This document shows positions 146-45,423 of a DNA stretch of 64,000 bases, piece by piece (the stretch's first letter is position 1; the number at the start of each line of letters is the position of its first letter). A program made the translations under genes and the position numbers. Source of the DNA: Minisyncoccota bacterium (GTDB lineage Bacteria; Patescibacteriota; Minisyncoccia; 2-02-FULL-40-12; GWA2-44-9); assembly GCA_030583765.1 (NCBI GenBank), contig CP129474.1, positions 521,348-585,347 on the forward strand. The letters run 5' to 3'. Under the pieces are notes generated by a model. That model was not told where the DNA came from. It searched no databases and saw only the letters and a program-made list of their open reading frames with translations.

Positions 146-400
146 ATGACATCTTCTCAACCAACAAAAGGACGTCGCCTCACGGGAACTATCGTTTCCG
201 ATAAAATGGACAAGACAGTTGTCGTGGAGATCACGCGCTTGCGCAAGCATGCGGTGTATAAGAAGTATCAAAAAGTTTCGCAGCGCTTTCAGGCGCATGA
301 TGAGCAAGAGCAGTATAACGTTGGAGACCGCGTTATCATTCGCGAGACTCGTCCACTGTCCAAAAATAAGCGCTGGATTGTTGAGGGTAAGGCTGCGTAA
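146..400 (+). CDS. rpsQ: 30S ribosomal protein S17
   Basis: 84 aa with the typical S17 sequence [19 protein letters not shown]...YKKYQK...[15 protein letters not shown]. It sits in conserved operon context. Confidence 0.9.
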
Positions 401-409
401 TACACACAT

Positions 410-775
410 ATGCTTCAACTTCGCTCTATTGTTTCAGTAGCAGATAATACAGGCGCAAAACGCGTCGGTGTTTTCAAGGTGCTTGGCGGTTCTCGCCGTG
501 CCTTTGCGCAGATCGGGGATATTGTAGTTGTATCCGTGAAGGTTGCCGAGCCACGCAAGTTGGTAAAGAAGAAGGACGTACTTCGTGCGGTTGTGGTGCG
601 CCAGCGCAAGCCGTTTCGTCGCAAGGACGGCTCATACATTCGGTTTGATGACAACGCAGTGGTGATCCTTGATGGCGTAGAACCAAAAGGCGGTCGTATT
701 TTTGGTCCTATCCCGCGAGAAATTAAAGAGCGTGGTTTTGCAACTATTGCATCTCTTGCGCAAGAGCTCGTCTAA
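410..775 (+). CDS. rplN: 50S ribosomal protein L14
   Basis: 121 aa with MLQLRSIVSVADNTGAKRV...IFGPIPRE; canonical L14. Confidence 0.95.
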   Translation: MLQLRSIVSVADNTGAKRVGVFKVLGGSRRAFAQIGDIVVVSVKVAEPRKLVKKKDVLRAVVVRQRKPFRRKDGSYIRFDDNAVVILDGVEPKGGRIFGPIPREIKERGFATIASLAQELV

Positions 776-785
776 TTCTATTCAT

Positions 786-1118
786 ATGGCAACACACATG
801 AAAATTCGAGTAGGCGATACGGTAACCATGCTGTCCGGAAAGGATCGCATGAAGACCGGCAAGGTGATACACGCATCTCCTGTTGATGGGAAGGTGCGCA
901 TTGAGGGCTTGAACACCGTTACGCGTTCTTTGCGCTCTCGCAAGCAGGGCCAAAAGGGGCAGAAGGTTTCGAGCGAGCGCTTTGTGTCCGTTTCAAGCGT
1001 CGCGCTTGTATGCCCATCGTGCAAGAAGCAGACGCGCGTTGGATACGAAATCACTGAAGTTTCTGGCAAAAAGCAGAAGCAGCGCGTCTGCAAAAAGTGT
1101 GGAAAGGCGCTTGCATAA
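786..1118 (+). CDS. rplX: 50S ribosomal protein L24 with C-terminal CxxC...CxxC zinc-ribbon tail
   Basis: ATG at 786 lies in frame with the 702 ORF. The KIRVGDTV...GKDRMKTGKV KOW motif is present. The C-terminus reads CPSC...CKKC. Confidence 0.85.
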   Translation: MATHMKIRVGDTVTMLSGKDRMKTGKVIHASPVDGKVRIEGLNTVTRSLRSRKQGQKGQKVSSERFVSVSSVALVCPSCKKQTRVGYEITEVSGKKQKQRVCKKCGKALA

Positions 1119-1151
1119 AAGGTATTTCTCACGTATACTCCACCCGCTTCT

Positions 1152-1691
1152 ATGACCCAACCATTACAGCAACACTATCAAAAGACAATTCTTCCTGCTC
1201 TGCAGAAAGAGTTTGGTATTGCAAATGTGATGGCGGTGCCGCGTATTCAAAAAGTAGTTATCAATACGGGCATCGGGCGCATGGTCAAAGATGGAGGCGC
1301 TATTGAGCGAGTCCAGCGTGACCTTACCGCTCTCTCCGGTCAGAAGCCGGTGATTCGCAAGGCAAAGAAGTCAATCGCTAGTTTCAAGTTGCGTGAGGGG
1401 ATGCCCGTCGGCGTTTCGGTGACGCTTCGCGGCAAGCGTATGTATGACTTTCTGCACCGCCTCATTACATTGGCGCTTCCGATGTCGAAGGATTTTCGTG
1501 GCATCGACCCCAAAAACGTTGATGGCGCAGGCAATCTTAATCTTGGCATTAAGGAGCATACCATTTTCCCCGAAGTATCATATGAATCGGTAAAAGATAT
1601 TTTTAGCCTACAGGTAACTGTTGTAACCACTGCACAAAATCGCGAGCGTGGTATCGCGCTTCTCAAGCAGATTGGAATTCCATTTAAATAA
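1152..1691 (+). CDS. rplE: 50S ribosomal protein L5
   Basis: 179 aa; the sequence and position match L5. Confidence 0.95.
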
Positions 1692-1696
1692 ACGAT

Positions 1697-1885
1697 ATGC
1701 CAAAGAAATCAACCATTGCACGTACCGCAAAGCATACGCCTAAGTTCTCAACTCGGCGCGTGAATCGTTGCGTACTGTGTGGTCGCAAGCATGGATATTT
1801 GCGCGCATTTGGTCTGTGCCGCATTCACTTCCGTGAACTTGCACTCCAAGGATTTCTTCCGGGCGTTCGTAAATCGAGCTGGTAA
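1697..1885 (+). CDS. rpsZ: 30S ribosomal protein S14 (short, zinc-type)
   Basis: 62 aa with CVLCGR...[10 protein letters not shown]...GVRKSSW, which is the type-Z S14 signature. Confidence 0.9.
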
Positions 1886-1897
1886 TACTTCATTATT

Positions 1898-2311
1898 ATG
1901 GCAATGATCCACGATCCAATCTCAGACATGATCACACGCATTCGCAATGCGCTCGCTGTGCGTGCGACCCATGTACTTGTACCGGCATCTCGCATGAAGA
2001 TGGGCATTGCGCGCGTTCTCCAAGAGGCGGGATACCTTACATCAGTTGAGCGACGTACGAAAAAAGTGCGTGCTACTGAGCACGAATTTATCGATATGGT
2101 ATTTGCGCGCGATACTGATGGTAAGCCTATGATCAATGATATGCGCTTGGTGAGTAAGCCGTCGCGTCACCTGTATGCAAAGGCGCGCGAACTGCGCCCT
2201 GTGCAATCTGGGTTTGGCATCGCGGTACTTTCAACGCCAAAGGGCATCGTGTCATCGCGCACTGCTCGCAAAGAAGGTGTTGGTGGCGAAGTCTTGTTCG
2301 AAATTTGGTAA
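1898..2311 (+). CDS. rpsH: 30S ribosomal protein S8
   Basis: 137 aa beginning DPISDMITRIRNA...; canonical S8. Confidence 0.95.
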   Translation: MAMIHDPISDMITRIRNALAVRATHVLVPASRMKMGIARVLQEAGYLTSVERRTKKVRATEHEFIDMVFARDTDGKPMINDMRLVSKPSRHLYAKARELRPVQSGFGIAVLSTPKGIVSSRTARKEGVGGEVLFEIW

Positions 2312-2320
2312 TTTCCTCCT

Positions 2321-2875
2321 ATGTCTAAAATCGGCAAACGACCAATTCACATTCCTCAAGGGGCATCCGTCACACTCGACGGCACTCTTTTGACCGTGAA
2401 AGGTCCAAAGGGGACAGCAACTCGCACTTTGTCGGGTATTATTGATGTTGCCGTTGATGGCGCGCTGATCCAACTGACGCCTCGCATTGATGCTCCTGTA
2501 GACGCAAAAACTCGCACTATTACTTGGGGTCTCGAGCGCGCCACCATCCAAAATATGTTGACTGGCGTGACCGCAGGTTTCACAAAGGCGCTTGAATTTA
2601 ATGGGGTCGGCTACAAGGCAGTTCTTCAAGGAAAGAATCTTGAACTTAGTCTCGGATTCTCGCATACTATCCCATTTATAGCTCCCGAAGGCATTCAATT
2701 TTCAGTAGAAAAGAACGTGCTCACTATTAGCGGGACTGATAAGGAGACCGTGGGCCAAGTCGCTGCAGAAATCCGCTCACTAAAGAAGCCAGAACCGTAT
2801 AAGGGTAGTGGCATTCGTTACCAGGGCGAAGTTATTAAGCAAAAGGCTGGTAAGAAGGCTATCGCATCAAGTTAA
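2321..2875 (+). CDS. rplF: 50S ribosomal protein L6
   Basis: 184 aa with MSKIGKRPIHIPQG...GYKA...GSGIRY; canonical L6. Confidence 0.95.
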   Translation: MSKIGKRPIHIPQGASVTLDGTLLTVKGPKGTATRTLSGIIDVAVDGALIQLTPRIDAPVDAKTRTITWGLERATIQNMLTGVTAGFTKALEFNGVGYKAVLQGKNLELSLGFSHTIPFIAPEGIQFSVEKNVLTISGTDKETVGQVAAEIRSLKKPEPYKGSGIRYQGEVIKQKAGKKAIASS

Positions 2876-3258
2876 TGCATTCTATGACACACGCCATTTC
2901 TAAAAACGCAGGTCGTATCCGTCGTCACGCACGTATCCGTGCGACGATTTCTGGCACCGCGGCTCGTCCTCGCGTGTGCGTCTTTAAGAGTAACTCATAC
3001 ACCTATGCGCAAGTGATTGATGACACAACGCGCAAGACGCTTTTCTCAGTGCACGATCATGAGCTAAAACCCGCTTCCGACGCTCCTGAAGGATCAGGCG
3101 CAAAGGTTGCAAAAGCATTTGCGATTGGTAAGGCGCTTGGCGAGAAGCTTAAGGCCGCAAAGATTTCAACGGTAGTATTCGACCGTGGTGGTTTCGCATA
3201 TCATGGCCGCGTGCGCGCCGTGGCCGAAGGCTTGCGCAGCGCTGGAATCTCCGTATAA
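2875..3258 (+). CDS. rplR: 50S ribosomal protein L18
   Basis: 127 aa containing RPRVCVFKSN..YAQVIDD...VFDRGGFAYHGRV. The exact start is uncertain. Confidence 0.9.
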   Translation: MHSMTHAISKNAGRIRRHARIRATISGTAARPRVCVFKSNSYTYAQVIDDTTRKTLFSVHDHELKPASDAPEGSGAKVAKAFAIGKALGEKLKAAKISTVVFDRGGFAYHGRVRAVAEGLRSAGISV

Positions 3259-3277
3259 TCACTAGACATTCTTAACT

Positions 3278-3901
3278 ATGGACGAACAGACACCAGTACA
3301 ACCAACTCCAGAGGTAACGCCAACGGCTCCGGCGGCTTCTGAGCCACAGCGCCACGGTCGTGGTGGTGGTCAGCGTTTTGGAAATCGTCGTCCAGGAGGT
3401 CGCCAAGGTCGTCGTCCTGCGCGTCCAATGGAGAAGCCAGAATATGAGCAAAAGACAATTGATCTTGCTCGTGTTGCTCGTGTCACAAAAGGTGGTAAGC
3501 GCTTCTCTTTCCGTGCAACGGTGGTTATCGGCGACGGCAAATCTCGTGTCGGTATCGGCATGGGCAAGGGCAAGGACGTCGCTCAATCGGTGCAGAAAGC
3601 ATACAATCAGGCGAAGAAGCGCCTGGTGACGATTCTGACCGTTAATGGCACTATTCCTAACACCGTACAGGCAAACTTTCACGGCGCAACGGTTATTCTG
3701 AAGCCTGCGAAAGGTGGTGTGAAAGCGGGTGGCCCTGTGCGTGTTGTTGCAAAGCTCGCTGGTATTACGAGTTTGACCGGCAAGTTGATCGAGCGCACCA
3801 ACAACAAAATCAATATTGCTATGGCGACAATCAAGGCACTTGGCATGTTGCGTGATCGCGCGCGTGACCGATTCGCGCGCGTGGCTCCGCCGTCTGCTTA
3901 A
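3278..3901 (+). CDS. rpsE: 30S ribosomal protein S5 with R/G-rich N-terminal extension
   Basis: 207 aa. The S5 core is ...RVTKGGKRFSFRATVVIGDG...GIGMGKGKDV... An about 50-aa extension precedes it. Confidence 0.9.
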   Translation: MDEQTPVQPTPEVTPTAPAASEPQRHGRGGGQRFGNRRPGGRQGRRPARPMEKPEYEQKTIDLARVARVTKGGKRFSFRATVVIGDGKSRVGIGMGKGKDVAQSVQKAYNQAKKRLVTILTVNGTIPNTVQANFHGATVILKPAKGGVKAGGPVRVVAKLAGITSLTGKLIERTNNKINIAMATIKALGMLRDRARDRFARVAPPSA

Positions 3902-3909
3902 TATTTTCT

Positions 3910-4380
3910 ATGCAACGTCAATCTATCAAATCAGCATCTCGTAGCATCGGTAAGCGCGTTGGCCGTGGTGGCAAGCGTGGAACGACATCCGGTGGTGGCA
4001 CTAAGGGACAAAAGGGTCGCGCTGGCGCAAGTGTGCGCCCGGGTTTCCGCGGCGGTGATAACCGCATCTGGCAATTGTTCCCAAAGCAACGTGGTGCAAC
4101 AAAGAAGCATGGCAGTAAGCGTGTACACCGCAAGCATCGTCGCTATCAGATCATTGCGGGCAAGCCTGCAGTTATTAATGTCGCCGCGCTTAACGCATTC
4201 TCTGCAGGAGATTCGGTGACACTCGCAACATTAAAAGAGCGTCGTCTTGTAAGTGGCGCCGCAAAAGCAGCGAAGATTTTGGGCACTGGTGAGGTAAAGG
4301 TAAAAGTAACAGTTGAAGGCGTTGACGTGTCTGCGTCCGCGCGGGAGAAGATCACTGCCGCCGGCGGGACCGTTGCGTAA
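3910..4380 (+). CDS. rplO: 50S ribosomal protein L15
   Basis: 156 aa with the G/K/R-rich L15 N-terminus. It follows S5 directly, so there is no rpmD/L30 between them. Confidence 0.9.
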   Translation: MQRQSIKSASRSIGKRVGRGGKRGTTSGGGTKGQKGRAGASVRPGFRGGDNRIWQLFPKQRGATKKHGSKRVHRKHRRYQIIAGKPAVINVAALNAFSAGDSVTLATLKERRLVSGAAKAAKILGTGEVKVKVTVEGVDVSASAREKITAAGGTVA

Positions 4381-4390
4381 CCTATTTGTT

Positions 4391-5650
4391 ATGGATCGTA
4401 TTCTGACCGCACTGAAGCGTCCGGAGCTCCGGAGCAAGATACTCTTTATTCTGGGTATCCTTGCATTGTCGCGCGTCCTCTCAACGATCCCTGTGCCTGC
4501 AATCGACGGCAGTCAGTTGAAGGAATTTTTTGCAAACAACCAATTCTTTGGTCTTATTAGCGCGTTCACGGGTGGTGGCCTCTCCAATCTTTCCATTGCC
4601 ATGATCGGCTTGGGTGCATACATCACCGCGTCGATCATTATGCAGTTGATGACTATGATCTTTCCTTCGATGGAGCAGTTGTACAAACATGAAGGAGAGG
4701 CGGGTCGCGCAAAGTTCAATCAATATTCCCGCATGCTTGCAGTGCCACTCGGCGCTATCCAGGCATACGGATTTCTAACGCTCTTGGTGCGTCAGAGTGT
4801 TATCCCTGCGATGTCCGGGTTCGAATGGTTTAATGCCATCACTGTTGTGGTTGCGGGAAGTATGCTTCTTATGTGGCTTGGTGAGCTGATGACCGAAAAG
4901 AATCTCGGCAACGGTGTCTCGCTCTTGATTCTTGCGGGTATCGCTGCGAGCATTCCCACAACGCTCCGACAGGCAATTTTTACCTACACACCCGATCAAC
5001 TCGTCACCTACATTGTCTTTGCAGTAATCTCGCTGGTTGTTATCGCCGGGGTCGTCTTTATCTCAGAGGCGCAGCGTAATATTCCAGTAACCTACGCGCG
5101 TCGCGTGCGCGGTTCCCGTGTATTCGGTGGGGTTTCCACGTATCTTCCTATGCGTGTGAATAACGCTGGTGTTATCCCGATTATCTTCGCACTCTCAATT
5201 CTTCTCTTCCCGGGCACGATCGCCACCTTCTTTGCGGGCTCGAGCATTACATTCCTTGCGAACGCGGCGCAATTCGTGCAGAACATTCTTGCGAGCAACC
5301 TGTGGTACAGCATATTCTACTTTGTGCTCGTGGTGCTCTTCACCTTCTTCTACACGGCAGTGACGTTTGATCCGAAGTCTATCTCTGAAAACATCCAGAA
5401 GCAGGGCGGCTACATTCCCGGCTTGCGTCCAGGTCCTATGACCGCGCAATTCCTCTCGTATCTGGTAAACCGCATCACGTTGGTCGGCGCACTCTTCCTT
5501 GGCGCAGTTGCTGTGCTCCCTAATGTGGTACAGGGCTTCACCGGCTTGACCGCCTTCTCCATTGGTGGAACAACTGTACTTATCGTGGTGTCAGTTGCGC
5601 TTGAGCTCATGAAACAGCTCGACGCTCAAGTCAGCATGTACGAATACTAG
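4391..5650 (+). CDS. secY: Preprotein translocase subunit SecY
   Basis: ATG at 4391 is in frame with the 4313 ORF. The protein is multi-TM, has SecY motifs and sits after L15. Confidence 0.9.
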   Translation: MDRILTALKRPELRSKILFILGILALSRVLSTIPVPAIDGSQLKEFFANNQFFGLISAFTGGGLSNLSIAMIGLGAYITASIIMQLMTMIFPSMEQLYKHEGEAGRAKFNQYSRMLAVPLGAIQAYGFLTLLVRQSVIPAMSGFEWFNAITVVVAGSMLLMWLGELMTEKNLGNGVSLLILAGIAASIPTTLRQAIFTYTPDQLVTYIVFAVISLVVIAGVVFISEAQRNIPVTYARRVRGSRVFGGVSTYLPMRVNNAGVIPIIFALSILLFPGTIATFFAGSSITFLANAAQFVQNILASNLWYSIFYFVLVVLFTFFYTAVTFDPKSISENIQKQGGYIPGLRPGPMTAQFLSYLVNRITLVGALFLGAVAVLPNVVQGFTGLTAFSIGGTTVLIVVSVALELMKQLDAQVSMYEY

Positions 5651-5697
5651 TAAAAACGAAGTAGAAAATTTCTCCCAAGGGCGCCCAAGCGGCGCTC

Positions 5698-5726
5698 TTG
5701 ACTTTTACATAAATAAACTGGATAAT
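5698..5726 (+). promoter_or_regulatory. Cassette 1 promoter: TTGACT-17bp-GATAAT
   Basis: -35 is TTGACT at 5698-5703. The spacer is 17 nt. -10 is GATAAT at 5721-5726. The RBS GAGGAGGTGGGC ends 1 nt before ATG 5750. Confidence 0.6.
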
Positions 5727-5749
5727 GTATGCACCACGAGGAGGTGGGC

Positions 5750-6151
5750 ATGGAGAGCTTTTTCACTGACATGGGCGAGGGCGATCGCGTGGTCGCGCAC
5801 GTCGGGATGCACTCGATCGACATGAGCCCCGAAGGGCGACCGGATGTGGCCTTGTCGTTGCCGATCAACGACATCGGGTACGGGGAGAGCGCTGATGTGT
5901 TGGAGGAGTATATCCTCGCCATCAACGCTGCGCTGAAGCTGGCTCATCGTCGGCTTCGTCTCGAAAGGGTTTTCGACCACCATGGCGAAGAGGTCGTGTT
6001 CGAGGGCGAGGTTTCTTTCGAGGGGCTGGTCGAAGAGGAGGGTCGTCGGGAAGAGGAGAACCCGGAAGATCCTCTGTACGCGAAGAGATTCGTTTTCATC
6101 TTCGAGGCGCTCCCCAACCCGACGTTGCGGGATCGCCACATGATGCCCTAG
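5750..6151 (+). CDS. Hypothetical acidic protein (cassette 1); GC-rich foreign-looking ORF inserted between secY and adk
   Basis: 133 aa. The start is set by the strong RBS: MESFFTDMGEGDRV... The codons are G/C3-saturated, unlike the flanking ribosomal genes. No motif was recognised. Confidence 0.6.
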   Translation: MESFFTDMGEGDRVVAHVGMHSIDMSPEGRPDVALSLPINDIGYGESADVLEEYILAINAALKLAHRRLRLERVFDHHGEEVVFEGEVSFEGLVEEEGRREEENPEDPLYAKRFVFIFEALPNPTLRDRHMMP

Positions 6152-6164
6152 TTGTGGGCTCGCC

Positions 6165-6215
6165 TACGCGCGTCGTTTCCTTCGGGAACCGGCGCGCTGT
6201 TCTTTTTTTATTTGG
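6165..6215 (+). terminator. Intrinsic terminator of cassette 1
   Basis: GC stem flanking a TTCC-TTCG-GGAA hairpin, followed by TGTTCTTTTTTTATTT. Confidence 0.55.
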
Positions 6216-6231
6216 CGTGTACAATACGACT

Positions 6232-6921
6232 ATGGAAAAACAGGCAATCATTCTCATTGGGCCACCGGGCGCAGGGAAGGGAACACAAGCTGAATTACTC
6301 GCCGATGATTTCGGTTTTTTTCACTTTGACACCTCGCAAATCATCGAAGAACGTTTTCGTACTGCGCCCGCCGATGATCCCGTGATCGCGCAAGCGAAGG
6401 CGAACTATGATGCGGGAAAACTCGTAGAGCCAGCACTCGTGGCAAGTTGGGTGATTGATAAAATCCGGGCGCTCGGCATTGGCGGCACCAGCATTGTATT
6501 TAGTGGTTCGTTCCGTACAAACACCGAAGCAGCTGAAGAGCTCCCCGTATTGCAAGAAGTGTATGGCGCCAAAAATGTGCACATTGTGAACATTGAAGTG
6601 GGAGAAGAAGAGTCGGTGAAGCGCAACTCGGGTCGTCGGGTGTGTAAGGTAAACCGTCACCCCATTCCCAACTTCCCGGAATTTGCGAATATCACTGCGT
6701 GCCCCAAAGATGGTAGTGAGATCGTGACGCGGAGTCTCGACGTTCCCGAAACTATTCGCGTGCGCTACGCAACATATCAAGAGCAAACGAAGCCCGTTGT
6801 CGCCTACTTTGAGGGGCAAGGGTATACGGTCATCCGCATCGATGGCGAACAACCCATTCGCAAGGTGCATGAAGATATCATGGAGCGTATTCACGAATTT
6901 TCACATCCGCAAAATATATGA
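6232..6921 (+). CDS. adk: Adenylate kinase
   Basis: MEKQAIILIGPPGAGKGTQ P-loop at the N-terminus. ATG 6232 is in frame within the 6154 ORF. Confidence 0.9.
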   Translation: MEKQAIILIGPPGAGKGTQAELLADDFGFFHFDTSQIIEERFRTAPADDPVIAQAKANYDAGKLVEPALVASWVIDKIRALGIGGTSIVFSGSFRTNTEAAEELPVLQEVYGAKNVHIVNIEVGEEESVKRNSGRRVCKVNRHPIPNFPEFANITACPKDGSEIVTRSLDVPETIRVRYATYQEQTKPVVAYFEGQGYTVIRIDGEQPIRKVHEDIMERIHEFSHPQNI

Positions 6922-7673
6922 TCCTCAAAGAGCAAGATATTCAATTCATGCGTGAAGGTGGAAAAATACTCGCAACAATATTGCGAGAGCTTGCCGCGTC
7001 AGTGAAGCCCGGCATGCCCACGCAGGCATTAGAAGACATCGCCCGTGAGCGTATCGCAGCGCATGGGGTTACTTCATCTTTTTTGGGATATAACGGGTAT
7101 CCCGCAACGCTCTGTGTGAGTGTGAATGAGGAAGCGGTGCATGCAGTGCCGGGAGGATACATCATCCAAGAGGGAGATCTGGTAAAGCTTGATTTCGGCG
7201 TGGTGCACCATGGCCTGCACACTGATAGCGCCGTGACCGTGATTGCCGGACTCACCGACGCACGAAAAAAAGAGTGGCAAGACCGCATCACGCTTTCGCG
7301 CGTAACGCGTGAGGCGCTCTATGCGGGCATTGCGCAAGCGCGTGCCGGAAACACGGTGGGGCACATCGGTGCTGCAATCCAAGCGCATGCAGAAAAAAAT
7401 GGATTCACGGTTTTAAAAGATCTGGGTGGACACGGGATCGGTATGCGGTTGCATGAGGATCCTTTTGTGCCAAACCACGGCTCTGCGGGGGAGGGGGACA
7501 CACTCGTAGCCGGCATGGCGCTTGCGATCGAACCTATTTTAACGACGGGCACACACAAGACAAAAGACGGAACCGATGGCTTTGCATACGTCACCAAAAA
7601 CGGAGCGCTCTCTGCACATTTTGAACATACTATTATCGTCACGGAGGGGGCTCCTATCATCGTAACTGAGTAG
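6918..7673 (+). CDS. map: Methionine aminopeptidase type I
   Basis: 251 aa with a typical MetAP pita-bread fold sequence. It follows adk. Confidence 0.9.
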   Translation: MILKEQDIQFMREGGKILATILRELAASVKPGMPTQALEDIARERIAAHGVTSSFLGYNGYPATLCVSVNEEAVHAVPGGYIIQEGDLVKLDFGVVHHGLHTDSAVTVIAGLTDARKKEWQDRITLSRVTREALYAGIAQARAGNTVGHIGAAIQAHAEKNGFTVLKDLGGHGIGMRLHEDPFVPNHGSAGEGDTLVAGMALAIEPILTTGTHKTKDGTDGFAYVTKNGALSAHFEHTIIVTEGAPIIVTE

Positions 7674-7685
7674 TCCTAAGGGGTA

Positions 7686-7713
7686 TTGACTTTATATACA
7701 AAGGTAGTATAAT
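7686..7713 (+). promoter_or_regulatory. Cassette 2 promoter: TTGACT-16bp-TATAAT
   Basis: -35 at 7686-7691 and -10 at 7708-7713. The RBS CAGGAGGTGGCAC is followed by ATG 7735. Confidence 0.6.
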
Positions 7714-7734
7714 ATACGCTCAGGAGGTGGCACT

Positions 7735-8328
7735 ATGGCCACGATGATGCAGGTCGGTCTGGCGGAGTTCGGCGCGAACGTCCGCCCCATCGCGGAGCGC
7801 ACCTTTCGGTGCCTCGTGCACAAGCGCGAGGTGACGTCTCGGGACGGTTTCGTCCTGAGCATCGGCAACATCCAGAAGGAGCTCGGACTGCCGGCGAAGC
7901 AGCTGCCGGCGATTCACCAGCTCAGCGGGTTCGTCGCCTGCTACGAGTGTCTCCCGAGTGTGAGGTCCTTCTACGGGGTGTCGTTCATGCCCCGCCTCGG
8001 GGACCAGCTCGCGCTGCTCGATCGGCACTTCAAGCTGGCGGCCCAGCAGGTGAGGGCGCGGCCGATCGCTCCGGCGACGGTCGTGCAGGGCACGACGACG
8101 GGGCGCACGGGGACGGCCATGCCCACGCTCCCTGCCGGCTACTTCGAGCGCCGGGGCCAGGCCCACAAGGGCCGGAAGTCCCGGGCCCAGAGGCGCGCGG
8201 AGGCGATGGCCAAGCGCGCGCGGCCGGCGGCCACCGCGGCCGTCGACAAGAAGGCCGCGAAGAAGGCCGCCAAGCAGGCGGCCAAGGCCAAGAACCAGAA
8301 GGGCAACGGTGGCAAGAAGCGCCACTAG
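7735..8328 (+). CDS. Hypothetical protein with histone H1/AlgP-like KAAK-repeat basic tail (cassette 2), likely nucleic-acid binding
   Basis: 197 aa. The N-terminal domain is about 110 aa. The tail reads ...KRARPAATAAVDKKAAKKAAKQAAKAKNQKGNGGKKRH. The sequence is very GC-rich. Overlapping alternative-frame ORFs are GC artefacts. Confidence 0.6.
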   Translation: MATMMQVGLAEFGANVRPIAERTFRCLVHKREVTSRDGFVLSIGNIQKELGLPAKQLPAIHQLSGFVACYECLPSVRSFYGVSFMPRLGDQLALLDRHFKLAAQQVRARPIAPATVVQGTTTGRTGTAMPTLPAGYFERRGQAHKGRKSRAQRRAEAMAKRARPAATAAVDKKAAKKAAKQAAKAKNQKGNGGKKRH

Positions 8329-8338
8329 CGGCCCACTT

Positions 8339-8388
8339 GCGGGGGTGTGTGCATACGGTGCACATACCCCCGCTTTTTCTTTGTTTTT
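8339..8388 (+). terminator. Intrinsic terminator of cassette 2
   Basis: GCGGGGGTGTGTGCA...TGCACATACCCCCGC hairpin followed by TTTTTCTTTGTTTTT. Confidence 0.6.
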
Positions 8389-8406
8389 CCATATAGGCAT
8401 ACACTA

Positions 8407-8436
8407 TTGACCTCTGGAAGGCTCTTCTGATATACT
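8407..8436 (+). promoter_or_regulatory. Putative 23S-5S rRNA operon promoter (TTGACC-18-TATACT) with leader hairpins downstream
   Basis: A near-consensus promoter lies about 290 bp upstream of the 23S 5' end. Leader stem-loops at about 8505-8535 and 8680-8720 look like processing stems. Confidence 0.4.
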
Positions 8437-8722
8437 CCCTAGTACCCAAAGATGATTACCTACCAGACAAGCGAAACCCTCAGCGGCTGACAGACCGTGT
8501 TCGCACGTCTGAAAAAGCCGCCTCAAGGCGGTTTCTGTGTCTCTAGGAGCATCACGCGGGTCGCTTCGCCCTAAGGGGCGAGACGAACCTCGCTCCATGA
8601 TCCTTTGGTATCATGAGCGGGCAGTACGTTGACAACGTGGAACGGGAGCTGAACGAAAGTTCAGCTTTGTATTGTTCGCTTTATAAGAGACCTAGGACCT
8701 CGAGTCCTAGGTGGTACTTTGT

Positions 8723-11815
<3,093 letters not shown>

Positions 11816-11873: not shown

Positions 11874-11985
11874 CTTGGCAGCTATACTGTAGGTGTCCCA
11901 CCTGATCCCATTCCGAACTCAGAAGTGAAATCCTGCAAGGCCCATGATAGTCGGACTCTTCCGGCGAAAGTAGGTAGCTGCCAGA
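11874..11985 (+). rRNA. rrf: 5S ribosomal RNA
   Basis: CTTGGCAGC...CCCACCTGATCCCATTCCGAACTCAGAAGTGAAA...GCTGCCAG; canonical 5S helices. Confidence 0.8.
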
Positions 11986-12024
11986 TTTCTGGCGTTTTTA
12001 TGTTGGTGAGGTATACTTGCAGAT

Positions 12025-37203: not shown

Positions 37204-37554
37204 TTAGACGGTTCGATCCATGCGGGCAAGTGCCAGATTAACGAGCGAGACCACGAGGGTCGCGCCGATGAGCGACCAGGCTCCTGCGCTTTCGATAGCG
37301 GCAAATTTCCAGTCAACAATACCAAGCAAAAGGGCGTTGATGACGATGCTGAAGAGCCCAAATGTGACAATGATGAGCGGGAATGAAATGAACGTCATGA
37401 TCGGCTTGATAGTTCCGTGTAACACGGCAAGTACTGCGCCTGCGAGGAGGTAAACCTGCGCGCTTGCTACTATAGAAAAGCCCGGAATAAAGAGGGCTGC
37501 CACATAGAGGCCAAGCGCATTTGCTATAACTCGCGCCGCAAAGCGAATGATCAT
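37204..37554 (-). CDS. DUF360-like small membrane protein
   Basis: 116 aa with 4 predicted TM segments. This is a weak family-level guess. Confidence 0.4.
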   Translation of the reverse strand: MIIRFAARVIANALGLYVAALFIPGFSIVASAQVYLLAGAVLAVLHGTIKPIMTFISFPLIIVTFGLFSIVINALLLGIVDWKFAAIESAGAWSLIGATLVVSLVNLALARMDRTV

Positions 37555-42644: not shown

Positions 42645-43562
42645 ATGACGCAGACACTCTACGAGCATCGTGATGCAAATATTCGCACGACATGGGCGCT
42701 CATGACCGGCTTTCTTGTGTTTGTTATTGGAATCGGCTTTTTGTTTAGCCAGGCGTTCCAAGCACCCGAAATTCTCTACATCGCCGTGCTCTTTAGCATG
42801 GTGAGCAACATCGTTGCGTTCTGGTTTTCAGATCGTATCGCACTGAGCATGTCAGGGGCTCGCCCAGTTTCGCGCGAAGAAAATGTGCGCTTGCACCGTA
42901 TGGTGGAGAACATTGCCATCACGGCTGGGTTGCCGATGCCGCGGCTCTACATTATCCCTGGAGCGCAGATCAACGCTTTTGCTACGGGGCGAAACCCACA
43001 AAAGGCTGCAGTCGCGGTGACGCGAGGTGCGTTGGAAAAGCTTGACGATAACGAACTTGAAGGGGTCCTTGCGCACGAACTCTCTCACATTGGGAATCGA
43101 GACATGCTTGTGGGGACGGTTGCCGTGGTGCTCGCGGGAGTCATTTCGATCCTCGCGGACATTGGCCTTCGCGCAGGACTCCACGGCCGTTCTTCTGATA
43201 GCAATAGCAAACAAGGTGGTGCGGCGCTCCTCATCATTGCGCTCATTGCTGCCATTCTTGCGCCGATTGCCGCAACACTCATCCGCTTAGCTGTTTCACG
43301 CAAGCGAGAGTATCTCGCTGATGCATCGGGCGCGCTTCTTACGCGCTACCCGGAAGGACTTGCAAGCGCATTAGAAAAAATTGGCGCTGACAGTGCGCCA
43401 ATGCCGAACGCCCATAACGCAACGGCACATCTTTTTCTCGCAAACCCATTTAAAGGCAAGGATGCGCTTTCGTGGTTTACAAAACTCTTTATGACACATC
43501 CTCCTGTCGCTGACCGCGTTCGCGCACTGAGAGGAATGGAGCAGGGCCGCGATGCTCCTTGA
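42645..43562 (+). CDS. htpX: Zinc metalloprotease HtpX (M48)
   Basis: HELSHIGNRD zinc motif and 4 TM helices. Confidence 0.85.
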   Translation: MTQTLYEHRDANIRTTWALMTGFLVFVIGIGFLFSQAFQAPEILYIAVLFSMVSNIVAFWFSDRIALSMSGARPVSREENVRLHRMVENIAITAGLPMPRLYIIPGAQINAFATGRNPQKAAVAVTRGALEKLDDNELEGVLAHELSHIGNRDMLVGTVAVVLAGVISILADIGLRAGLHGRSSDSNSKQGGAALLIIALIAAILAPIAATLIRLAVSRKREYLADASGALLTRYPEGLASALEKIGADSAPMPNAHNATAHLFLANPFKGKDALSWFTKLFMTHPPVADRVRALRGMEQGRDAP

Positions 43563-43587
43563 AGATTGGCATTTTCACTGGTAGAAT
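43559..43587 (+). promoter_or_regulatory. Cassette 7 promoter: TTGAAG-17bp-TAGAAT
   Basis: The -35 overlaps the htpX stop (43560-62). RBS AGGAGG is at 43608-13 and ATG at 43620. Confidence 0.5.
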
Positions 43588-43619
43588 CCGCGTAGCTCTT
43601 GTGGGGCAGGAGGCTTGCC

Positions 43620-43880
43620 ATGATGGGACGCAGATCGCTCCTGCGGATTGCATATCATCTCGTGCATCCGCATGTGAGTGAAGAGGAAATGCCCCACGAA
43701 GAGTGGGACATGGCAGTAGCCATCGCGCAAGATCGGCGTGATCGTCGGTGGCCGCTCAACGAACGCACTGACGCGCTCTGGGCTCCGGTGCGGGATGCGA
43801 TTCTCAACGTTCCGCGTCCCGACCACGTTTCCGAAATGACGTACCGCCTCTTCCATGAAGTGGTTCGTGACATCGAGTAG
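43620..43880 (+). CDS. Hypothetical small protein (cassette 7)
   Basis: 86 aa beginning MMGRRSLLRIAYHLVHPHVSEEEMPHEEWDM... It is GC-rich. No motif was recognised. Confidence 0.45.
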   Translation: MMGRRSLLRIAYHLVHPHVSEEEMPHEEWDMAVAIAQDRRDRRWPLNERTDALWAPVRDAILNVPRPDHVSEMTYRLFHEVVRDIE

Positions 43881-43924
43881 TTCTCCTGCGCGCTGACAGA
43901 CTTATTCTGCGAGCGCGCTTCCTT

Positions 43925-44008
43925 GGAGGGTTGGCCGAGTGGTTTAAGGCGCACGCTTGGAAAGCGTGTGGGCGCAAGCCCTCACAGGTTCGAATCCTGT
44001 ACCCTCCG
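43925..44008 (+). tRNA. tRNA-Ser (anticodon GGA)
   Basis: GGAGGGTTGGCCGAGTGGTTTAAGGCGCACGCTTGGAAAGCGTG...GGTTCGAATCCTGTACCCTCCG. It has a long variable arm. The loop TTGGAAA gives anticodon GGA. CCA is not encoded. Confidence 0.85.
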
Positions 44009-44180
44009 CATATGTACATCAGTATGCCGTTTGGCGTACTGATGTACATGGGTATATGTATGGTGCGGGATTCGAATGCCGGAGCGATGTGTTGCCAGCT
44101 GGCAACACCGCGAGGCGGTGCCTAGCCCGAGTCGAGCGACGGCGAGACGAAAGGCGAAGGAGAATCCTGTACCCTCCGCA
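43992..44180 (+). repeat. 19-bp direct repeat (GAATCCTGTACCCTCCGCA) = tRNA-Ser 3' end, copies at 43992-44010 and 44162-44180, flanking 151 bp of palindromic DNA
   Basis: Exact duplication seen in sequence. The intervening segment contains TGTACATCAGTA-N12-TACTGATGTACA and a TTGCCAGCTGGCAA palindrome. Confidence 0.8.
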
Positions 44181-44183
44181 CAT

Positions 44184-44741
44184 ATGGCAGATTCTTTTTT
44201 CGATAAACCATTTGCGATCACTGACGTTGAAACAACGGGCCTTGATGTGCGTCGTCATGAAATCATCGAAATCGGTCTTGTAGTCGTCGACCAGAAAACA
44301 TTTAAAGTGCTCGACGAACTTGATCTCAAGGTCCAGCCAGCGCATATTGAAACCGCAGAGGCGGGTGCGCTAAAGGTAAACGGTTATGTGCCAGAGCAGT
44401 GGACGAATGCCGTGCCCCTTGCCGATGCTATGAAACAATATAGCGCGAAAACGCGCGATGCAATTTTTTGCGCATGGAATATCACTTTTGACTGGCAGTT
44501 TATTGAAGAAGCCTTCCGTTCTACTGGAGTGCGTGATCTACTCGATTATCATCGCATTGATATTCCAAGTATCGCATGGGAAAAAATGCGCCATAAAAAC
44601 AGTGTAAAATTTCGACTGAGTAGCCTTGCGGAAGAGCTTGGTATCCCGCCAGAGCCAGAAGTTCACCGCGCTATTAATGGCGCACGCCTCGCCGCGGACG
44701 TGTTCCGCAAGCTTCTGATCCCGCAGGACTCTCTGCTTTGA
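44184..44741 (+). CDS. DEDD-family 3'-5' exonuclease (DnaQ/epsilon-like)
   Basis: Exo I motif FAITDVETTGLD. ATG 44184 lies immediately after the second copy of the tRNA-derived repeat. Confidence 0.8.
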   Translation: MADSFFDKPFAITDVETTGLDVRRHEIIEIGLVVVDQKTFKVLDELDLKVQPAHIETAEAGALKVNGYVPEQWTNAVPLADAMKQYSAKTRDAIFCAWNITFDWQFIEEAFRSTGVRDLLDYHRIDIPSIAWEKMRHKNSVKFRLSSLAEELGIPPEPEVHRAINGARLAADVFRKLLIPQDSLL

Positions 44742-44775
44742 CGCGCTTGAAGGGATCATTCATACTATACACACT

Positions 44776-45423
44776 ATGGCTGACTCAGATATCAAAAAAG
44801 ATGATGCGGGCGAACAGACTGAGCGCGTACTTCCCGAAGCCGAACTTACCAATCCAGTTGTGCCCGAAGCTGTTGAAGAGGATAAGACACAAGAATATCA
44901 GGTTGGCGGATTTGAGCATGATTCCGAGAGCACTATCAACGTTCCCAGTGTTGAGAAATTTCATGACGGAGAGATCGTAGAAATTACGGATCCAGAGATT
45001 CTCGCTACAGGTGACAACGATGGTCAGTGGCGTGTCATTGGGTATGAGCGTGACGCTCGCGGTATTCCCGTGCTTTCTGAAGATCCAAGCGAAAGTGATG
45101 CTGAAAAAAAGAAAAAGTTCGTTGTACTTATCGAAGAAGTGGTCGGGGGAAGAACGACAAAAGTATTTGAAACCGACATTAAGCGCATCGGCGAAGGCTC
45201 TGTTTTTGAGGACATTGTTTCTTTGCCAGAAAAGATGGAGGGTAGAGAAGTTATCATCAAAAATATTCCTTGGCGTATTGTGAAAGTTGCGGGAGAGGCA
45301 CAAGGAGGAAAGATAGGAGAGGGGGTTTATATCGTCTTACGCAACGATCAGCTCGGCGTTGAAATGCAGCCCATCTCACTTGAAAAACTTGCCGCGATTA
45401 CCGAAGAAGTTGTGCCCAAGTAA
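44776..45423 (+). CDS. Hypothetical acidic protein
   Basis: 215 aa, E/D-rich, with lower GC than neighbours. No motif was recognised. Confidence 0.5.
   Translation: MADSDIKKDDAGEQTERVLPEAELTNPVVPEAVEEDKTQEYQVGGFEHDSESTINVPSVEKFHDGEIVEITDPEILATGDNDGQWRVIGYERDARGIPVLSEDPSESDAEKKKKFVVLIEEVVGGRTTKVFETDIKRIGEGSVFEDIVSLPEKMEGREVIIKNIPWRIVKVAGEAQGGKIGEGVYIVLRNDQLGVEMQPISLEKLAAITEEVVPK

Follow-up and report, generated by a model that had tools for sequence, protein, structure and literature searches.

The window analysed here is a 64-kb stretch (64,000 nt) of Minisyncoccota contig CP129474.1, which is core chromosome of a Patescibacteria (Candidate Phyla Radiation, CPR) bacterium. The element in question lies between a tRNA-Ser(GGA) gene without an encoded CCA (43925-44009 on the + strand according to ARAGORN; Rfam tRNA at 43925-44008, 60.4 bits) and, on the same strand, a gene for a 185-aa 3'-5' exonuclease of the DEDD, RNase_T family as assigned by Pfam (44184-44741). 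A 19-mer, GAATCCTGTACCCTCCGCA, is found exactly twice, both times on the + strand, at 43992-44010 and at 44162-44180, with a chance expectation of 0. No third match to it, with up to three mismatches allowed, was detected in the 64-kb window, and 0 of 100 shuffles produced a match; the repeat reaches 22 nt if one mismatch is allowed. Copy 1 (a) corresponds to tRNA positions 57-73 plus CA, and spans the 3' half of the T-loop (from position 57), the 3' strand of the T-stem, the 3' strand of the acceptor stem and the discriminator G73, followed by CA. Copy 2 (a-prime) provides with its first 12 nt (44162-44173) the 3' strand of a helix named P1, and its remainder after 44173 is a single-stranded tRNA-like 3' tail that stops 3 nt short of the exonuclease ATG (44184). 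The initial annotation, made from the sequence, had proposed both this direct repeat of the tRNA-Ser 3' end and the position of the second copy directly before the exonuclease start, and both observations are correct.

Three further features had been listed in the DNA between the copies, and all are present. The 12/12 inverted repeat is actually a hairpin of 17 bp, in which 44012-44028 and 44033-44049 are 94% complementary; the palindrome GTGTTGCCAG/CTGGCAACAC extends over 20 bp at 44089-44108, and the T-loop-like fragment is GGGATTCGAATGCC. Missing from that list was 44053-44076, where the tRNA 3' end recurs imperfectly in inverted orientation; the core of this inverted copy, GGUGCGGGAUUC at 44062-44073, pairs with copy 2. 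Folded as RNA, segment 44009-44190 has a predicted energy of -90.5 kcal/mol, compared with -59.9 +/- 4.0 in shuffles (z = -7.7). Separate minimum free energy (MFE) folds of four distinct members of the family presented below give one and the same architecture, composed of H1, P1, P2 and P3. In this model, the module is a structured RNA of about 120 nt (44062-44178), in which helix P1 closes a three-way junction.

All parts of the module are on the + strand. H1 is the 17-bp hairpin directly after the tRNA (44012-44049), with one U.G pair and the loop GUUU. Its sequence is peculiar to the tRNA-Ser locus, and a compensatory change from T-A to A-T is seen in the related locus L002. The 5' strand of P1 (e, GGTGCGGGATTC, 44062-44073) is antisense to tRNA positions 57-68, and in the window this arm forms 12 bp with copy 2, two of them G.U. 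P1 is 12 bp long in three of the four members and 9 bp long in L028. P2 (44077-44117), with the composition GCC-GGA-GCG-AU-GUGUUGCC-AGCU-GGCAACAC-CGC-GA-GGC, is the conserved arm. It is placed inside a 48-nt core (44073-44120) that is 98-100% identical between tRNA-Ser and tRNA-Val loci; every one of its alignment cells is paired, with two-sided changes at five pairs. P3 (44120-44161) is the variable arm, CCU-A-GCC-CGA-(hairpin)-GAAAGGC-GA-AGG, in which the conserved motifs CCCGA and GAGAGGCGA flank a hairpin, and two-sided changes occur at seven pairs across its helices 4 and 5.

Covariation was assessed on an alignment (A5) of the four distinct members, for the 43 pairs of their shared fold. 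Standard pairs occupy 91.8% of the cells, compared with 30-46% when partners are slid, and both sides have changed in 14 of the 43 pairs. The observed values were reached by none of 500 shuffles on four of the five measures, and by one of 500 on the fifth. Cells that are not Watson-Crick pairs comprise eight G.U against one A.C in the domain, and five G.U against none in the H1 hairpins. Because this G.U excess is on the tRNA-sense strand, the folded strand is taken to be the tRNA-sense transcript, or else the top DNA strand.

Related loci were found in two metagenome-assembled genomes (MAGs), H41-bin004_1, which includes L002/L006, and H51-bin004_1, which includes L005. The 170-nt element is 91% identical between the window and L002/L006, compared with about 83% for the exonuclease and M48 peptidase genes and 77% for the next 3 kb. 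The adjacent tRNA in L002/L006 is Ser(TGA), with a T stem different from that of Ser(GGA) in the window, and for this reason copy 2 of L002 deviates from the 3' end of the tRNA next to it. Its pairing with the upstream arm, which is unchanged, nevertheless remains perfect.

A metagenome scan with a 23-nt palindromic core disclosed a second locus in the genome of L006 (L014 = L023, JBBTTB010000006). There, a tRNA-Val(CAC) gene is followed by two tandem 205-bp units, each with a hairpin, an arm complementary to the tRNA-Val 3' end, the 48-nt core, a variable arm and an exact copy of the tRNA-Val 3' end, GAGTCCAGGTGCGCCCA, in that order. The 48-nt core is 100% identical to that of the tRNA-Ser locus. 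The core was found behind tRNA-Val(CAC) in L014/L023-L025, with one unit in the assemblies L024 and L025, and L022 shows only the element start (the arm and the first bases of the core) behind tRNA-Val before the contig ends. The more distant L028, where a neighbouring protein is 65% identical, has a diverged 134-nt unit placed between tRNA-Val and a GC hairpin with a T-run; this hairpin and T-run were read directly from the sequence, and a consensus terminator scan gave no flag there. In every member, the direct copy and the antisense arm both match the local tRNA. Tails at the tRNA-Val members are GAGTCCAGGTGCGCCCA and GAGTCCAGTATCGCCCA, unit termini vary by locus (GGTGCGGGATTC, CGCGCCTGGCTC and GTACTGGAC), each according to its own tRNA, and duplications are 19-22, 23 or about 50 bp long by locus. 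In relatives further removed, the element is absent at the exonuclease loci L007-L012, L030 and L031 and at the tRNA-Val-neighbour loci L029, L032 and L033, most of which have no adjacent tRNA. A protein search for further copies with the six-frame translation of the core returned nothing.

In L005, whose exonuclease is 95% identical in protein, the tRNA-Ser 3' end runs straight into the exonuclease start (...ACCCTCCGCACTATGGCAG). At this junction, ...ACCCTCCGCAC-TATGGCAG, the tRNA 3' end is 4 nt distant from the exonuclease ATG, and a three-way alignment has a clean gap of 171 columns in L005, bounded by the repeat. An empty site with one repeat copy is characteristic of phage-type attachment (att) sites, and it is equally expected from slippage between the repeats. 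An empty tRNA-Val site exists in the H51 genome as well (L015, L016), comprised of the tRNA, the native hairpin and the shared downstream flank only. Depending on the assembly, tRNA-Val loci thus carry 0, 1 or 2 tandem units.

The organization of these units has a counterpart in RtT RNA, which is not known from outside the enterobacteria. RtT is known from the 178-bp repeats at tyrT in E. coli (Rfam RF00391, rttR; Bosl and Kersten 1991, cited in PMC3318445 and PMC2965389). The rtT RNA, whose role is unknown, is released when the tyrT transcript is processed (PMC3318445; bioRxiv 10.1101/2024.07.17.603846), and RtT-like sequences are also carried by enterobacteria as dispersed repeats (PMC2965389). 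RtT units are arranged in tandem with a 178-nt period, and the unit in E. coli ends with the last 19 nt of tRNA-Tyr, from T-loop A58 (AATCCTTCCCCCACCACCA). The Rfam consensus structure is closed by GGGGAAGG(A)U pairing with A(U)CCUUCCCC, that is, by an arm and the copy of the tRNA-Tyr 3' end.

The CPR module shares most of this design. Both are located on the same strand and directly 3' of a tRNA gene, their units are comparable in length (178 nt for E. coli, 134-205 nt for CPR), and the last ~17-19 nt of the host tRNA recur exactly at the end of each unit, from a T-loop position onwards (A58 for E. coli, G57 for the window). The 5' arm pairs in the same register with the T-stem 3' strand and acceptor positions 61-68 of the copy, and the resulting helix encloses a multi-branch domain, as in RtT. 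Tandem arrays with a final fractional unit occur in both, and each has a GC hairpin accompanied by CCCGA...GGCGAAG motifs, in RtT as a hairpin and then CCCGAAGGGCGAAG, in CPR as CCCGA(hairpin)GAGAGGCGAAGG. A tandem G.A motif, supported by covariation, was reported in the RtT structure (PMC7657543), and tandem G.A/A.G is present in P3 of the window copy. The two differ in phylum (Patescibacteria and Enterobacteria) and in host tRNA (Ser and Val in one, Tyr in the other), and the CPR tRNA lacks the encoded CCA of the RtT host. The inner domains are also different, with two small hairpins in P2 of RtT as opposed to one long P2 arm and a P3 arm in CPR. Furthermore, the window has, unlike RtT, only one unit, which sits tight against the start codon of a protein, and the tpr-like open reading frame (ORF) is not conserved, since the ATG at 44076 is ACG in L002; for the same reason, a small ORF starting there in frame with the exonuclease was rejected.

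The 2.3-kb E. coli locus was searched with a covariance model, R1, for which the four CPR members were the sole input. The four best matches of R1 are the four RtT units (12.3-14.8 bits, E 0.003-0.016), and the next match has an E-value of 0.41. Each of these RtT matches covers the full length, with strand and register correct.

Taken together, we consider it probable that the 19-bp repeat belongs to an RtT-like tRNA-trailer RNA element, a structured module co-transcribed with tRNA-Ser from the tRNA strand. Because the arm pairs with the copy to form P1, as in RtT, copy 2 is the 3' strand of the closing helix, and would thus be a structural part of the RNA and not an attR. Co-transcription with the tRNA is suggested by a promoter-like site upstream and by the terminator-like hairpin that follows the module in L028, and the place of the L028 element between the tRNA and that hairpin gives positional support to the release of a discrete RNA. 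The upstream site, TTGAAG-17-TAGAAT with a TG extension (43559-43587, + strand), was called only by consensus match; it is located at the end of the M48 peptidase gene, and its hexamers are kept in L002 and L005. It is probably the start of a transcript covering tRNA-Ser, the element and the exonuclease gene.

The tRNA 3'-processing machinery would then cut this transcript at each tRNA-type 3' end and release a trailer RNA of ~170 nt, in the manner of rtT from tyrT. At the window locus, this cleavage would shorten the leader of the exonuclease mRNA to 5 nt, comparable to the situation in the relative whose tRNA directly adjoins the ORF. In the window, the exonuclease start codon is 5 nt past the tRNA-like discriminator and lacks a Shine-Dalgarno sequence. 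The distance from the tRNA or tRNA-like discriminator is 4-5 nt in three of three genomes (window 44178-44186; L005 2996-3003), again without Shine-Dalgarno, suggesting that tRNA and mRNA are co-transcribed and that processing then yields a near-leaderless exonuclease mRNA. Given such spacing, copy 2 would preserve the processing context for that mRNA.

Loss and amplification of units would require no recombinase, and may proceed by slipped mispairing or unequal crossing-over between the 10-19-bp repeated tRNA ends, both of which would be favoured by the strong hairpins between the repeats. Inverted-repeat elements such as Tn10 and Tn5 are known to undergo precise excision by slipped mispairing between short direct repeats. 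The situation here is similar in that direct repeats of 10-19 bp flank hairpin-forming DNA, and a relative has lost one repeat together with the intervening DNA; it is different in that no transposon is involved, and the route is inferred. A related detail concerns the Ser arm, which is the perfect complement of CCCGC and not of the present CCUGU. This suggests that the copy is overwritten from the tRNA and the arm lags behind, the mismatch being tolerated in the form of G.U pairs.

Several points weigh against the RtT-like reading. Only four distinct members support the structure, and they represent no more than two tRNA types and a single bacterial lineage; transcription and processing at the window locus are only inferred. 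The R1 matches are weak, the R1 E-values are rough, and the E. coli units, being near-identical, amount to about one independent match. In the opposite direction, the Rfam RtT model gave no match at E <= 10 on window 43000-45000 and 44045-44190, L023 4480-5060 or L028 3530-3675; the CPR copies stay below its gathering threshold of 45 bits, and E. coli units used as a positive control score 133-137 bits. Alignment of the inner region with RtT scored 36-38 against a shuffle mean of 27-29 (sd 4.5), a score reached by 35-56 of 1000 shuffles (p ~0.04-0.06). The likeness to RtT may therefore be convergence instead of common descent, and with R1 weak, the reverse Rfam search negative and the inner similarity marginal, we name the element RtT-like in design only. 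In addition, the difference between one and two units at tRNA-Val could be caused by assembly collapse of a tandem repeat and is consequently given little weight, and the gain of arms fitting a new tRNA is not explained by the proposed model.

The initial annotation interpreted the locus as an integrase att footprint, in which a phage or island had entered the tRNA-Ser 3' end, the 19-mers are attL and attR, and 151 bp were left after an internal deletion. The direct repeat does extend from the T-loop to the tRNA end, a sublocation that tyrosine integrases reportedly use, it brackets DNA absent from a close relative, and it bounds this indel precisely, with L005 as the empty site; this part of the proposal stands, and the term miniature element, also offered, describes the unit fairly. 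The integrase mechanism does not. The window was free of integrase, transposase, reverse transcriptase and phage-module genes in Pfam scans of 59 ORFs, no recombinase was called in loci L002 and L023-L025, and a large serine recombinase gene in L028, which would favour integration, is ~3.5 kb from the element and outside the repeat-bounded unit. Neither is the bracketed DNA a relic that has lost its bulk. It carries no cargo, it is a conserved structured module more similar between genomes (91%) than its flanks (77-83%), with a core 98-100% identical and a fold supported by covariation, and the same core is found in one genome (L006/L023) behind tRNA-Val with Val-specific arms and that tRNA's own sequence. 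Integration also offers no role for the internal arm complementary to the repeat. The initial annotation had proposed a search of the genome and of relatives for the 151-bp segment, and for the 19-mer next to integrase genes; no such integrase neighbour was seen in the relatives or viral contigs covered, and in relatives the core is situated behind tRNA-Ser and tRNA-Val. Searching the IMG/VR viral contigs for an attP with the 19-mer, the core, the hairpin flank and two family motifs yielded chance matches in coding DNA, none of which reached an R1 E-value better than 0.58, and a single genuine 19-mer match, a phage tRNA-Ser(GCT) gene within a 17-tRNA array; no viral contig in these scans carries the filler. 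As for the possibility that a universal arrangement with no mobile DNA would indicate structural duplication, mobile genes are indeed missing, but the arrangement is polymorphic. We regard integration as very unlikely.

Mobility of another type deserves consideration, since the same core is located at two tRNA genes of one genome, both loci show presence or absence in close relatives, tandem copies exist, Logan contigs break at the core start as is typical of repeats, and arm and flank covary with the target tRNA. These features could belong to a non-autonomous element, either of the miniature inverted-repeat transposable element (MITE) type or RNA-guided, that targets tRNA 3' ends, duplicates the target and uses the antisense arm as a guide. 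Such elements should have constant termini, whereas the would-be terminal inverted repeats vary here by locus; transposase, reverse transcriptase or IS110-type genes were not found in the window or the loci; the 64-kb window holds only one copy, and only two tRNA types are affected; the duplications, at 19-50 bp, exceed the usual length of target-site duplications; and vertical inheritance with loss accounts for the tRNA-Val pattern (present in H41, L022 and L028, absent in H51). A mobile element is thus unlikely. A cis-regulatory leader of the attenuator or riboswitch kind, serving the exonuclease-dnaG-rpoD genes and borrowing tRNA sequence, would fit the position directly upstream of the exonuclease ATG, the pairing of 44180-44186, AUG included, with upstream bases in the MFE fold of the window, and the filing of RtT as cis-regulatory in Rfam. 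It appears quite improbable, as what follows the tRNA-Val modules is non-coding DNA of ~400 bp or, in L028, a terminator-like hairpin, and not a homologous gene, the AUG pairing is not conserved in L002 (CCTTTATG), and L005 presumably expresses the same gene without the element. Finally, a tandem tRNA-Ser duplicate decayed to a pseudo-tRNA with only its 3' end intact was considered, bearing in mind that tRNA-Ser genes recombine at this locus (Ser(GGA) in the window, Ser(TGA) in relatives) and that L002 and L005 have a second copy of a 5' tRNA fragment upstream. The 150 nt preceding copy 2 are unlike the tRNA body or its upstream flank, with a local alignment score below the shuffle mean, and neither ARAGORN nor Rfam called a second tRNA. 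Uniform decay would not keep 19/19 identity beside unrelated sequence, and the core of the Ser member is common to tRNA-Val members. On account of the upstream alignment and the shared core we reject this possibility, which retains a negligible probability.

Returning to the RtT-like element, in global MFE folds of the tRNA plus its trailer the partners are often exchanged, so that the arm binds the genuine tRNA end and the distal copy binds the tRNA 5' half. This alternative state is the global MFE in three of four tRNA-plus-trailer transcripts, the normal arrangement being preferred in L002, and the predicted energies of the two states differ by 1.5-6.7 kcal/mol. It is conceivable, albeit rather improbable, that RtT-type modules form a cross-phylum class of tRNA-coupled RNA devices in which the arm pairs with either the real tRNA end or the decoy copy, giving a two-state transcript. 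In the first state, a normal tRNA would be accompanied by a folded trailer, and in the second, the 5' half would be joined by the distal copy to make up the tRNA, and the module would protrude as a loop from the T-loop. If true, tRNA maturation could be controlled by this switch, or else the release of the leaderless mRNA downstream, and the antisense arm could also guide spread of the module to new tRNA genes.

RtT has for decades been an orphan, a structured repeated RNA behind a single E. coli tRNA operon and of unknown function. A module of RtT design now appears in Patescibacteria, behind two other tRNAs. Since the closing helix is re-tailored to each host tRNA and the structure is supported by covariation, the combination of a tRNA-end copy and an antisense arm emerges as the defining, selected feature. 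This provides a testable handle on the role of the trailer in tRNA 3' processing, or as a decoy or switch, together with a recipe for further searches, namely a tRNA 3'-end copy ~100-250 nt downstream of the gene and an intervening antisense arm. It also calls for caution, because a direct repeat of a tRNA 3' end does not by itself prove an integrated element.

Similarity to known RNA families was addressed by Rfam searches of four stretches, at gathering thresholds and at E <= 10, which returned the tRNA plus noise only. Hammerhead-like CUGAUG/CGAAA motifs in the window were rejected after inspection by eye, as they are not conserved in L002. A resemblance to T-box elements (ACCGCG) was dismissed as well, in view of no Rfam match and no aminoacyl-tRNA synthetase context.

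With regard to the tRNA-Ser gene itself, the same locus is occupied by Ser(GGA) in the window (43925-44009) and by Ser(TGA) in L002 (5742-5826) and L005 (2913-2997). The genes agree fully in the acceptor, D and variable arms and diverge in the anticodon arm and T stem, and the spacer between the M48 gene and the tRNA is unalignable. The difference points to an isoacceptor swap, presumably through recombination among tRNA-Ser genes. The leader and the first ~18 nt of tRNA-Ser (CAGTTTTATTGGAGGGTTGGCCGAGTGG) are tandemly duplicated upstream of the real tRNA in L002 (~5640-5741) and L005 (~2790-2912), and the first CAGTTTTATTGGAGGGTTGGCCGAGTGG copy heads ~90 nt not recognised as a tRNA by ARAGORN or Rfam. 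The spacer of 360 bp that separates M48 from tRNA-Ser is found only in the window and includes, at 43599-43880, a 93-aa ORF with a TTG start and no Pfam match. A 13-bp hairpin (43888-43918) is positioned immediately upstream of tRNA-Ser.

Some observations were made on the contigs used for comparison. Three independent Logan contigs, L003 and L004 (both at position 1) and L022 (at its end), break exactly at the first bases of the core (CGAACGCCG...), which is to be expected if the core is repeated within those genomes. The serine recombinase of L028 (1-146) is a 616-aa large protein with Resolvase and Recombinase domains, ~3.5 kb from the tRNA-Val element and external to the repeat-bounded unit. 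The viral contig L001 (IMG/VR UViG_3300037249_001405, 210 kb) carries 17 tRNA genes in 10 kb (361-10659), one of them with a four-base anticodon (ttta), and the 3' end of its tRNA-Ser(GCT) is identical to the window 19-mer.

Other genes of the window encode ribosomal proteins, SecY, 23S and 5S rRNA, RpoB/C, FtsK, RecA, RNase J, GroES/EL, LemA and the M48 peptidase. The M48 gene is followed by tRNA-Ser, the exonuclease, a hypothetical gene, DnaG and RpoD, and the order exonuclease-hypothetical-dnaG-rpoD resembles the macromolecular synthesis operon. The exonuclease is a core gene of Patescibacteria, with 514 homologues of ~177-195 aa in the group. A 116-aa ORF of the Phage_holin_4_2 family (37204-37554, - strand) is located amid core genes (UvrC and a solute-binding protein), with no further phage genes nearby. 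The 5S rRNA gene (11874-11986) is beside 23S with no adjoining 16S gene, so that the rRNA operon appears unlinked. The 23S rRNA gene (8718-11809) is 3092 nt long compared with the 2925-nt Rfam model, and with ~170 nt extra it may carry an insertion.

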